Below the pieces are notes generated by a model. The model did not search any database and was not told where the DNA came from. It was given only the letters and a program-made list of their open reading frames with translations. From sequence record OR846573.1: 1,005 nt of DNA; one strand, 5' to 3'. The DNA is from a phage. Position numbers and translations under genes: made by a program. Below, one piece after another: positions 1-1,005 of this stretch; the first letter of the stretch is position 1; every line of letters starts with the position of its first letter.

Positions 1-2
1 AT

Positions 3-58
3 TGTGACGTACACCGGACAACAACACGACGCATTGCAGATGTGCCAGCCCTGACACA
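3..58 (-). promoter_or_regulatory. Two TGT-N12-ACA dyads (3-20 and 41-58), candidate Ogr/delta-type late-activator sites of a promoter probably firing leftward off the window
   Basis: Seen in sequence: TGT at 3-5 with ACA at 18-20, and TGT at 41-43 with ACA at 56-58; centres are 38 bp apart. Established knowledge: P2/P4 late promoters carry TGT-N12-ACA centred near -55, and P4 promoters have a second delta site near -18. If transcription runs leftward, the centres (49.5 and 11.5) place the start about 6 bp left of position 1, with a -10-like CACAAT on the minus strand at 6..1. The dyad is self-complementary, so direction is not fixed by the sequence; a rightward start near 67 is the alternative. 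Confidence 0.35.
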
Positions 59-136
59 GGAGACTCATCCTCAGACCGGCAAGCCAGGAAAAGGTCGCAG
101 GAAAAACCGGCTTACTGTTTGTTTTTTTATATTTTA

Positions 137-241
137 CTGTTCACCTCTGTTCACCATAAGAAAAAAGATAAGTAATACAGTAAGTTAAAGGGTGAACAAT
201 CGCAGTAATGACTGTTCACCGTCTGTTCACCACTGTTCACC
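137..241. repeat. Iteron cluster: six copies of octamer TGTTCACC (five direct, one inverted), P4 type I iteron-like; candidate crr/origin-type cis replication element
   Basis: Seen in sequence: TGTTCACC at 138-145, 148-155, 213-220, 224-231 and 234-241 (all with a preceding C, i.e. CTGTTCACC), and inverted as GGTGAACA at 191-198. Spacing within clusters is 10-11 bp. Background is AT-rich and non-coding. The identification with P4 alpha-protein iterons is from memory, not from a search. Confidence 0.8.
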
Positions 242-261
242 CGTTGATGGGCTTTTTATGC

Positions 262-280
262 TGTTTATTACTGTTTATTT
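262..280 (+). repeat. Two tandem degenerate iteron-like repeats, CTGTTTATT x2
   Basis: Seen in sequence: CTGTTTATT at 262-270 and 272-280, 10 bp apart; they share CTGTT with the strong iterons but diverge in the 3' half. They may be decayed iterons or chance in AT-rich DNA. Confidence 0.3.
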
Positions 281-399
281 TTATTAATTCACTGAAATAA
301 ATAAGAAAAAACAATTTGCATTTCACTATAAAAAATTCCAGTTCCTTCAGAACCCTTTGAGACCCTTCCAGTCCGGATGGATAAAAAACACACAGCCAT

Positions 400-456
400 T
401 GTAAGGTTACCGGAACAAATTCCCCCTGTTGCGTCTGCTGAAAATATTCACAAAAT
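400..456 (+). promoter_or_regulatory. Activator-dependent late-type promoter for the AlpA/Vis-like gene: TGT-N12-ACA dyad (400-417), weak -35 TTGCGT (429-434), weak -10 CAAAAT (451-456)
   Basis: Seen in sequence: the dyad centre at 408.5 puts a predicted start near 463. The weak -35 and -10 hexamers (16-bp spacer) sit at the matching positions, and the ATG at 520 follows after a leader of about 57 nt. A partial second dyad (TGC 436-438 ... ACA 450-452) lies about 36 bp downstream of the first. Weak core hexamers are expected for an activator-dependent promoter. Confidence 0.4.
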
Positions 457-519
457 AAAGCGCTACCCGAAGCCGGACGGACTTATCCGGTGCTGTATGG
501 ACATTAACGAGGTAGCCCG

Positions 520-786
520 ATGCAAGCTGTTTTTTCTTCCCCGTCTCCCGCCCCTGTTACGCCACTGATGCCGCTGCCGGACATCACGCAGGAGCGTTTT
601 TTACGTCTGCCGGAAGTGATGCACCTGTGCGGCCTGTCACGCTCGACCATCTATGAACTCATCCGTAAGGGGGAATTTCCGCCGCAGGTGAGTCTTGGCG
701 GTAAAAATGTGGCCTGGCTGCACTCTGAAGTCACCGCATGGATGGCCGGGCGCATTGCCGGACGCAAACGGGGGTACGACGCATGA
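520..786 (+). CDS. alpA: AlpA/Vis-family (Phage_AlpA-type, MerR-like HTH) transcriptional regulator / excisionase-like DNA-binding protein, 88 aa; P4 Vis-like
   Basis: Complete ORF, ATG 520 to TGA 784-786, with GAGG Shine-Dalgarno at 509-512 (7-nt spacer). Residues about 25-75 (ERFLRLPEVMHLCGLSRSTIYELIRKGEFPPQVSLGGKNVAWLHSEVTAWMAGR) match the AlpA-family pattern by eye: LRLP..V, G.SRSTIY, G.FP, LG.. and W..SEV..W. Size and basic C-terminus fit the family. The symbol is family-level; in a true P4 genome the gene would be called vis. Confidence 0.88.
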   Translation: MQAVFSSPSPAPVTPLMPLPDITQERFLRLPEVMHLCGLSRSTIYELIRKGEFPPQVSLGGKNVAWLHSEVTAWMAGRIAGRKRGYDA

Positions 787-1005
787 TGATGCCCGCTCTG
801 CAAAAACTCCCTTTTTCTGGCTTGCCTTTTTCCGGCATTTGCGGATATAGTTTTTCCGCTGCCGCAAAATCGGCAGCCGGGCGTGAGAACCCGAGTATGT
901 TATCGGCGACATATGACGCGCCATGCGTCTTTTTTTGTGTCGCAATCAACGCCACAGAGCGCCAGATTATGGTGTGGCGTGTGGTTTGCCGTGCAGGTAT
1001 GATCC
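783..1005 (+). CDS. Possible 3'-truncated ORF of unknown function, start overlapping the upstream stop (ATGA); alternative internal start at 897
   Basis: Seen in sequence: three in-frame ATGs at 783-791; the first overlaps the TGA of the upstream gene. The frame stays open for 74 codons to the window edge (about 3 percent chance in random sequence), but two minus-strand frames are also open here, so stop-poor composition may explain it. The translation (MMMPALQKLPFSGLPFSGICGYSFSAAAKSAAGRENPSMLSATYDAPCVFFCVAINATERQIMVWRVVCRAGMI...) is Cys-rich and not recognisable to me. A hairpin plus T-run lies inside it (915-936). Confidence 0.25.
   Translation, partial: MMMPALQKLPFSGLPFSGICGYSFSAAAKSAAGRENPSMLSATYDAPCVFFCVAINATERQIMVWRVVCRAGMI
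822..851 (+). promoter_or_regulatory. Possible sigma70 promoter: -35 TTGCCT (822-827), 18-bp spacer, -10 TATAGT (846-851)
   Basis: Seen in sequence: 4/6 and 5/6 matches to the consensus hexamers with an acceptable spacer. Position immediately downstream of the regulator gene would fit an early promoter of a P4-like left operon, but this is by eye only. Confidence 0.25.
858..877. promoter_or_regulatory. Perfect 7-bp inverted repeat GCTGCCG-caaaat-CGGCAGC; candidate operator or 5' RNA stem-loop
   Basis: Seen in sequence: GCTGCCG (858-864) and its reverse complement CGGCAGC (871-877) around a 6-nt loop. It lies just downstream of the putative -10 at 846-851, i.e. at the predicted transcript start. 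No T-run follows on either strand, so it is not an intrinsic terminator. Confidence 0.3.
915..936 (+). terminator. Candidate weak intrinsic terminator or attenuator: GACGC-gccat-GCGTC hairpin followed by seven T
   Basis: Seen in sequence: 5-bp GC-rich stem (915-919 / 925-929), 5-nt loop, then TTTTTTT at 930-936. Strand-specific: the minus-strand transcript would have the A-run before the hairpin. The stem is short, so termination is likely partial or regulated. Confidence 0.3.

Follow-up and report, generated by a model that had tools for sequence, protein, structure and literature searches.

The described system closest to the locus treated here is the satellite phage P4, in which the alpha primase-helicase binds the ori type 1 repeats, and whose late promoters, like those of P2, carry TGT-N12-ACA boxes recognised by Delta and Ogr. 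The present study characterised a stretch of 1,005 nucleotides (nt) of phage DNA (sequence record OR846573.1), referred to below in its entirety as the window, which with near certainty represents the central non-structural control region of a P4-type satellite of 11.7 kb, integrated at tRNA-Leu (leuX) in Escherichia coli O157:H7. The locus is a textbook P4 replication-origin and regulatory hub and, as such, already known biology. Two short cassettes inside it differ from P4, and probably set the helper phage to which the satellite answers and its immunity type.

Both of these properties have counterparts in described systems. P2 Cox binds directional boxes spaced 10-11 base pairs (bp) apart, covers 70 nt or more upstream of the P4 promoter P_LL in footprints and activates P_LL; Wphi Cox, which recognises another direct repeat of 12 nt, fails to activate P4 (PMC5009727; PMC3936717). 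In P4 immunity, the CI RNA pairs with seqA and seqC, located up- and downstream of cI, leading to premature termination (PMC4825925). The immI C4 system of phages P1 and P7 and the IsrK RNA of Gifsy-1 fall into the same Rfam families (C4, c4-a1b1, isrK) as the P4-type element; in immI, too, a processed antisense RNA pairs with flanking boxes of its own transcript and specificity resides in a few loop nucleotides, whereas the reported outcome differs, being premature termination of the replication operon in the P4-type element and antirepressor control in P1/P7 (PMC4825925). As a family, the P4-like satellites of Enterobacterales comprise seven components within approximately 11 kb, are integrated at tRNA genes and hold a variable defence locus between int and psu. 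The psu-int hotspot lies beside cos and counts type II restriction-modification systems among its occupants (Rousset et al., 2022; PMC9122126).

Identity of the window

Across 99% of its length, the window shares 93.9% DNA identity with P4 (nt 8554-9550, reverse strand), and chromosomes of O157:H7 and related E. coli match it at 100%. Matches were found in 1,059 of 5,426 complete E. coli genomes, all of them chromosomal; the same search returned no plasmid match. At the aligned coordinates, the P4 record (NC_001609 / X51522) annotates an 'origin of DNA replication' with six 'ori type 1 repeats' and three 'ori type 2 repeats', together with ORF88 ('excisionase and transcriptional regulator', corresponding to Vis) and the start of the old 'cI' open reading frame (ORF). 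An earlier note on this DNA, made from the letters alone, had proposed a resemblance to the P4 control hub on the basis of activator sites, iterons, an activator-dependent promoter, a Vis/AlpA-like gene and an early or immunity-like region; the identity to P4 bears this out, and all the listed elements are present in the order given there.

Elements, order and spacing of the ori-P_LL-vis-P_LE region are the same in P4 and in the window, with the six ori iterons, the three TGT-N12-ACA boxes, P_LE, the leader hairpins and the terminator identical or nearly so. The two sequences differ by a 9-nt indel ahead of the CI RNA, and pairwise alignment places near-identity at window positions 1-289 and 413-850 and pockets of divergence at 290-412 and 851-1005.

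A variable repeat cassette upstream of P_LL

The sharpest divergence from P4 extends over approximately 35-40 bp (window 343-378), where 34 of 50 positions are identical, against 50 of 50 in the flanks. It belongs to the following feature, delimited by alignment and motif scan:

336..378, minus strand: variable repeat cassette, in place of the P4 'ori type 2 repeats'

The cassette lies at 9176-9205 in P4 and at 6546-6598 in the related loci L004 and L005, and likewise in L006. On the minus strand, the window-type allele reads TTCCAGTTC / CTTCAGAAC / TTTGAGACC / TTCCAGTCC and the P4 allele TTAAAGTCA / TTAAAGCCA / TTAAAGCAA, both at 10-bp spacing. The three P4 repeats agree with the P2 cox-box consensus TTAAA(G/C)NC(A/C) at 9/9, 9/9 and 8/9 positions, and L006 likewise has three boxes with the same scores. 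In the window, by contrast, no P2 cox-box was found at 8/9 or better, nor an array of at least three such boxes 10-11 bp apart. The architecture of the cassette is nonetheless that of the P2 Cox operators and the Wphi direct repeats, namely at least three directional repeats one helical turn apart.

Variation of the cassette was followed in a sample of 81 loci, made up of P4, the O157 locus, three further chromosomal loci of E. coli and 76 loci from viral contigs whose Vis is 98-100% identical to that of the window. The cassettes fall into three discrete classes, each conserved within itself (35 P4-type, 27 third-type and 19 window-type), and no intermediate occurs among the 81 loci. In complete E. 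coli genomes, the numbers are about 280 for the window type (at least 90% identity), about 340 for sequences only about 80% like the window type, and about 440 for the P4 type. Identical Vis (WP_001149160.1) and identical Cnr (WP_000856729.1) occur with all three classes.

A link between cassette class and a satellite protein was considered and rejected, since Epsilon differs by single substitutions only, Delta alleles are scattered over the classes and no cognate protein was found. A link to immunity type was likewise discarded, the two being essentially independent (chi-square p = 0.15).

Resemblance of the cassette to helper Cox operators

Each cassette allele was aligned locally to the cox-upstream regions of P2-like phages, represented by nine references and then by 116 distinct regions from viral contigs. 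With the nine references, the P4-type allele scored 33 against P2 (shuffle p 0.0002) over approximately 35 nt including the flanking GCAATTC, the third-type allele 29 against Salmonella phage SI7 (p 0.0002) and the window-type allele 22 against E. coli phage ev239 (p 0.005), real-sequence background maxima being 22-25. In the 116-region panel, the best match of the P4-type allele was again the P2 class (33), that of the third-type allele was L261 (29), a Wphi-family region (86%), and that of the window-type allele was L292 (29), whose Cox is 79% identical to that of Wphi. The window-type alignment to L292 covers 45 nt with 33 matches and one 2-nt gap, keeps the three boxes aligned in register and is located between 82 and 39 nt ahead of the cox ATG. 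Coding-region controls in this panel peaked at 21-22, and the family-wise p, taken from the panel maximum per dinucleotide shuffle, was 0.0025 for the P4-type, 0.0075 for the window-type and 0.022 for the third-type allele. In all three matches, the satellite minus strand is paired with the helper strand running in the cox direction. The window allele resembles known helper operators to a moderate, statistical degree, short of near-identity.

A tentative reading, held with somewhat less than even confidence, is that P4-type satellites carry an exchangeable 'helper-sensor' cassette, whose three alleles mimic the Cox-operator arrays of three different P2-like helper classes, the P2 type being assigned to P4 and two Wphi-family types to the window and third alleles. 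Neither Cox nor cox-boxes are mentioned in two surveys of the P4 family, and no paper combining these terms was found in the literature searched.

Alternatively, instead of sensing helper Cox, the 336-378 cassette could bind a protein of the satellite itself, such as Vis, alpha or Cnr, or serve as a hypervariable spacer under no selection; this is considered unlikely. The P4 record labels the repeats as part of ori; against this, the P4 allele consists of three consensus P2 cox-boxes upstream of P_LL, exactly at the reported Cox footprint, and it aligns with the P2 Pe-Pc zone over approximately 35 nt (score 33, family-wise p 0.0025). A spacer free to drift would not be expected to form three discrete conserved classes, and a site for Vis, Cnr or alpha sits poorly with Vis and Cnr being identical across alleles and with an alpha 99% identical to that of P4 despite the different alleles. 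The window-type and third-type cores have no close copy among 50,697 phage records, in which BLAST returned chance matches only (E >= 0.3) and none in P2-like phages; yet both alleles score best with Wphi-family cox-upstream regions, on the same strand and above all coding controls. The Wphi Cox 12-mer (CCTAGAARGGAC), tried as the motif of the window allele, shows no enrichment in the window, where a single match at 3 mismatches compares with 0.92 expected; as an argument standing alone it was rejected. No matching classes were seen for Epsilon, the other factor directed at the helper. Co-residence of cassette and helper, traced through IMG/VR genome ids, yielded six pairs only, too few to decide: two P4-type with P2, two P4-type with Wphi, the latter being mismatched, and two third-type with Chuche.

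The Apl operators of phage 186 (approximately TGGCAA, seven copies) were also compared and proved unlike every allele, with scores of 12-15 and p values of 0.41-0.99. As a separate observation, the P4 array (L001, approximately 9170-9210) aligns with the P2 Pe-Pc operator zone (L009, approximately 1951-1986) over about 35 nt, the flanking GCAATTC included. This likeness exceeds the shared 9-nt boxes and, at the sequence level, suggests that the array was copied from a helper. According to a 2026 survey, P2 and P4 fall short of the high sequence identity required for homologous recombination and exchange no defence genes.

P_LE, the leader RNA and immunity type

The second cassette lies within the early region downstream of vis, where the following features were located, the last two beyond the right end of the window and given in window-equivalent positions:

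822..851, plus strand: P_LE, constitutive early/immunity promoter, TTGCCT-18-TATAGT (promoter scan; the '-10' feature of P4 record X02534)
845..897: c4-a1b1, targets of the C4 antisense RNA (Rfam, 50.8 bits; gathering score 46.7)
858..935: isrK (Rfam, 71.2 bits; gathering score 50)
858..936, plus strand: P_LE leader 'SeqA RNA' (IsrK-type), with two hairpins, a single-stranded seqA box and an intrinsic terminator (Rfam)
899..906, plus strand: seqA immunity box GTTATCGG, target of the CI RNA loop CCGAUAAC (seqB)
915..936, plus strand: intrinsic terminator, GACGCGCCATGCGTC followed by T7 (terminator scan)
1034-1121, 29 nt beyond the window end: C4 antisense RNA (Rfam, 74.2 bits; above gathering score)
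about 1084-1091 and about 1160-1167: seqB and seqC, respectively, as located in L003, the locus matching the window at 100%

The TTGCCT-18-TATAGT promoter is the only sigma-70-like promoter in the window and has the same sequence in P4; by analogy, its transcript would start near 858. The leader thus holds target boxes and the antisense RNA follows downstream in the same transcript, the arrangement of C4/CI antisense immunity.

When the immunity region was aligned across five elements, the boxes, of 8 nt each, varied and the remaining RNA was invariant:

O157 (window): seqA GTTATCGG, seqB CCGATAAC (CI RNA hairpin loop), seqC GTTATCGG
P4, L004 and L005: seqA TTCACAGG, seqB CCTGTGAA, seqC TTCACAGG
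L006: seqA TCTAACGG, seqB CCGTTAGA, seqC TCTAACGG

The three boxes vary jointly and stay complementary, seqA being the exact complement of seqB and the same as seqC. At least five immunity types occur across the 81 loci, and seqA and seqB are perfectly complementary in 64 of the 68 loci from which both boxes could be extracted. Because the seqA type of the window differs from that of P4 and is accompanied by matched seqB and seqC, heteroimmunity to P4 is predicted for the O157 element.

The few other loci look like recombinants or cases of a single mismatch. Two pair the seqA of one type with the seqB of another and look like recombinants; two further loci have a sixth seqB (TATGAC), partly complementary to their own seqA. 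The leader (835-944) also shows short DNA similarity (76-95%) to 'terminator' regions or regions upstream of antirepressors in unrelated phages, namely Klebsiella phiKO2, Salmonella 118970_sal3, and Stx2a-converting and other E. coli phages, which fits a wide spread of the IsrK/C4-type leader module.

The complete satellite and its cargo

The flanks were surveyed over 31 kb around the 100% match in L003. From left to right, the order is tRNA-Leu(CAA), confirmed by ARAGORN, integrase, a helix-turn-helix protein, a type II restriction endonuclease, a cytosine methyltransferase, psu, delta, sid and the window; after the window, which contains vis and the start of an 'Icd-like' ORF, follow epsilon, an orf151 homologue, DUF5375 (cnr), the alpha primase-helicase and a small ORF overlapping the second iteron cluster, crr. 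The attL core GAGTCCGGCCTTCGGCACCA at the tRNA 3' end (L003 8741-8760) is identical to the 20-nt P4 attP core, while the attR core (L003 20455-20473) has a 1-nt deletion (GAGTCCGGCCTTCG-CACCA) with respect to both. These two copies bound an element of approximately 11.7 kb.

The integrase (L003 8925-10199) contains a Phage_integrase domain (PF00589, 8.7e-18) in addition to arm-binding and central domains, and is identical to P4 Int at 386 of 425 positions (91%). Identity to P4 is 242/244 for Sid and 164/166 for Delta (both 99%), 768/776 for Alpha (99%) and 95/95 for Epsilon (100%). The psu-delta-sid genes, lying immediately left of the window, gave Pfam matches to Psu (PF07455, 1.3e-88) and Ogr_Delta (PF04606, 6.9e-22), and the alpha primase-helicase (PF03288) a Pox_D5 match at 3.6e-16. 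Each of the seven components in the definition of de Sousa & Rocha was found, in P4 order, which makes the element a complete 'Type A' P4-like satellite (PMC8628076), with no difference from the family at that level. The flanking features by which the earlier note proposed to recognise such an element, namely an integrase beside a tRNA, att sites, alpha, psu/delta/sid and variable genes, were all found, with att cores at both ends and the variable genes between int and psu.

The earlier note was also right that the cargo would lie outside the window. Between int and psu, PADLOC identified Control_protein (1.4e-69), REase_II (5.3e-177) and MTase_II (C5-cytosine, 3.5e-105), and Pfam matched DNA_methylase (7e-65) and, weakly, RE_EcoO109I (1e-5). 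This is an ordinary type II restriction-modification system controlled by a C protein, occupying the place in which P4 carries gop-beta-cII. The expectation that novelty would be concentrated in the neighbouring kilobases failed here, the cargo being ordinary and the less expected features lying inside the window. Sister elements with the same Vis protein are found at tRNA-Sec or ssrA sites with other integrases and other cargo in the same slot (a helicase and a hypothetical protein, an AAA ATPase and an HNH protein, or two hypothetical proteins).

The element might instead be a fixed, decaying remnant, unable to excise, replicate or be mobilised, whose hub is a fossil kept for its restriction-modification cargo; this is judged improbable. 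The attR deletion, the insertion sequence (IS) elements within related copies and an allele without P2 cox-boxes could all be taken as signs of decay, but the seven core genes are intact and 91-100% identical to those of P4, and the window-type cassette is kept as a discrete class in 19 of the 81 sampled loci, not degraded. A resident helper may also be absent, since Sp13, the only P2-like prophage of O157 Sakai, is without most morphogenetic genes (PMC2669165). Against loss of function stand the intact ori and crr, the intact boxes of both late promoters, the CI RNA with its matched seqA and seqC, and the total length, 11.7 kb, which is a packageable P4 size.

A second island abuts the satellite to the right of attR (L003 20673-31005). 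Besides a truncated P4-type integrase and a transposase fragment, it contains an HNH protein annotated as a phosphorothioate-dependent restriction enzyme, a type II Zorya system (zorA2/B2/E), and DruH (PADLOC E = 0) with a large DEAD/DEAH helicase behind it, an arrangement resembling Druantia type III. The satellite and the second island appear to form a tandem island array at leuX.

The replication origin

The left part of the window contains six copies of the iteron TGTTCACC, against 0.06 expected by chance, and none of 200 shuffles reached six. Together with two AT-rich stretches, they are arranged as follows:

112..135: AT-rich stretch beside the first iteron pair, GC about 0.27 to 0.37, inside the P4 rep_origin
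138..155, plus strand: ori type 1 iterons 1-2, two copies (138, 148) at 10-bp spacing (P4 repeats 9396-9413)
191..198, minus strand: ori type 1 iteron 3, inverted (P4 9353-9360)
213..241, plus strand: ori type 1 iterons 4-6, three copies (213, 224, 234) at 10-11 bp spacing (P4 9310-9338)
244..335: AT-rich origin region, GC 0.18 to 0.28 (base composition)

The AT-rich region at 244-335 is likely the unwinding region. A crr-type cluster of five iterons lies past alpha (L003 19965-20228), approximately 4.7 kb right of the window. In P4, crr is located at 4291-4590, between attP and the end of alpha, and the ori iterons at 9310-9413. The presence of a type 1 iteron cluster with a second cluster, crr, in cis, at positions agreeing with the P4 annotation, points to a replication origin of the P4 kind. 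The label crr, which the earlier note had given to the window iterons, was mistaken, as the window aligns to the P4 rep_origin. That these iterons are nevertheless crr, the cis-required replication region, in an order P_sid - crr - P_LL, is scarcely credible: the 8-bp type 1 repeat is common to crr and ori and cannot by itself separate them, yet the window aligns to P4 8554-9550, with its six ori type 1 repeats, and not to 4291-4590, and the O157 element has its own crr-type cluster downstream of alpha.

Two IS insertions were observed in sister copies (L007 6679-8981; L004 8402-11017): an IS21-family ISEc12 between sid and vis, inside the ori/P_LL hub, and an IS66-family element between the orf151 homologue and cnr.

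Putative activator boxes and late promoters

A pattern search recovered three TGT-N12-ACA boxes in the window, against 0.36 expected, with at least three present in 2 of 200 shuffles:

3..20, minus strand: P_sid promoter-proximal box, TGTGACGTACACCGGACA, same in P4
41..58, minus strand: P_sid distal box, TGTGCCAGCCCTGACACA, same in P4
400..417, plus strand: P_LL activator box, TGTAAGGTTACCGGAACA

On the strength of what is known of P2/P4 late promoters, we take these boxes to be putative Delta/Ogr sites. In the 400-417 box, TGT and ACA are invariant in 81 of 81 related loci and the N12 spacer has eight variants, a constancy of half-sites around a variable spacer that lends comparative support to the half-sites alone being read. 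The promoter scan found no sigma-70 -35/-10 pair at the P_sid or P_LL box sites. On the minus strand, sid begins with a start codon 33 nt to the left of window position 1, and P_sid would start just left of the window if its distal box were centred at approximately -55. By the same kind of analogy, P_LL would start near 463, approximately 56 nt ahead of vis. No claim is made for a further Delta box near -18 of P_LL, the only candidates, noted by eye, being an imperfect TGC-N11-ACA or TGT-N12-AAA.

vis and the overlapping reading frame

Two reading frames were assigned on the plus strand:

520..786, plus strand: vis (P4 ORF88), AlpA-family excisionase and regulator of P4 promoters (Pfam and P4 identity)
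783..1005, plus strand, running off the window: N-terminal 74 codons of a 196-codon ORF, annotated 'Icd-like' by the Prokaryotic Genome Annotation Pipeline (PGAP; L003 15783-16373)

The vis product matches Phage_AlpA (PF05930) at 7.3e-21 and 74.2 bits (cutoff 21), and is identical to P4 ORF88/Vis at 87 of 88 amino acids. The 196-codon ORF matches Phage_ASH (PF10554) at 3.5e-22 and is 87% identical to the same frame in P4. A 65-codon ORF (MATTLTPSHPEF...) is nested at its 3' end, with a GGAGG that abuts seqC. In the terms of the P4 literature, we assume the 196-codon ORF to be eta and the nested ORF to be kil. Since the start of the longer frame lies upstream of P_LE, it can be translated from P_LL transcripts only.

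Three other ORFs, of 63 amino acids (377-568) and of 102 and 74 amino acids (both on the minus strand), were rejected as genes, having no Pfam match and being unannotated in P4.

PF10554 serves in the literature as the marker for 'epsilon' (Epsilon/Ash), yet its match in L003 falls on the 196-amino-acid ORF, within which P_LE, the leader and the CI RNA lie in overlap, and not on the 95-amino-acid epsilon, which was not itself scanned against Pfam. The marker may report another gene than the one named. Vis-encoding loci were also encountered in oddly labelled assemblies, one labelled 'uncultured Clostridiales' (L014, URND01000141.1; Vis 99% identical) and one Vagococcus sp. (L050, NZ_JBQPOM010000030.1; Vis 70% identical); these may reflect contamination or mis-binned enterobacterial DNA, not true hosts.

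Discussion

The features of the window suggest a working model built on P4. Delta, or the Ogr of a helper, would act on the TGT-N12-ACA boxes so that P_sid fires leftward into sid-delta-psu, while the alpha primase-helicase would bind the ori iterons together with the crr cluster 4.7 kb away. Helper Cox would dock on the 40-bp array of 10-bp repeats and thereby switch on the adjacent late promoter P_LL, with its single TGT-N12-ACA box, which would drive vis, eta/kil and the whole replication operon rightward. In the lysogen, the constitutive P_LE transcript would end early, the CI RNA derived from the same transcript pairing through seqB with seqA and seqC; P_LL transcripts would escape this termination because the long ORF from 783 is translated.

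The P4 homology, the motifs with their statistics, the flanking genes, the RNA families and the covariation of seqA, seqB and seqC were observed directly in these sequences. The start sites, the occupancy of sites by proteins and the mechanism of termination are carried over from the P4/P2 literature, and would apply here by analogy.

No finding contradicts the identification, but it has three limits. The window allele is without P2 cox-boxes, so activation of P_LL by helper Cox cannot simply be carried over from P4 and P2. The start sites and the occupancy assumed for this element are transferred from P4. Finally, the attR core has lost 1 nt, which may hamper the excision of this copy.

For a region in which PGAP marks only a 'helix-turn-helix regulator' and an 'Icd-like protein', leaving ori, promoters and RNAs unlabelled, the first value of the analysis is a correct annotation. 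The comparison of seqA, seqB and seqC provides a natural covariation proof of the RNA pairing in P4 immunity; from it, five or more heteroimmune groups are predicted among nearly identical satellites of E. coli.

If the helper-sensor reading of the cassette is true, the cassette, and not the satellite proteins, would set which helper's lytic switch wakes the satellite, and its recombination would not be tied to that of the seqA/B/C immunity cassette, which lies 500 bp from it. In that case, the O157 element would not sense P2 Cox but would respond to a Cox of the Wphi family. The choice of helper by P4-like satellites is left unaddressed in two surveys of the family; if the alleles match Cox classes, helper compatibility would be readable from approximately 40 bp.

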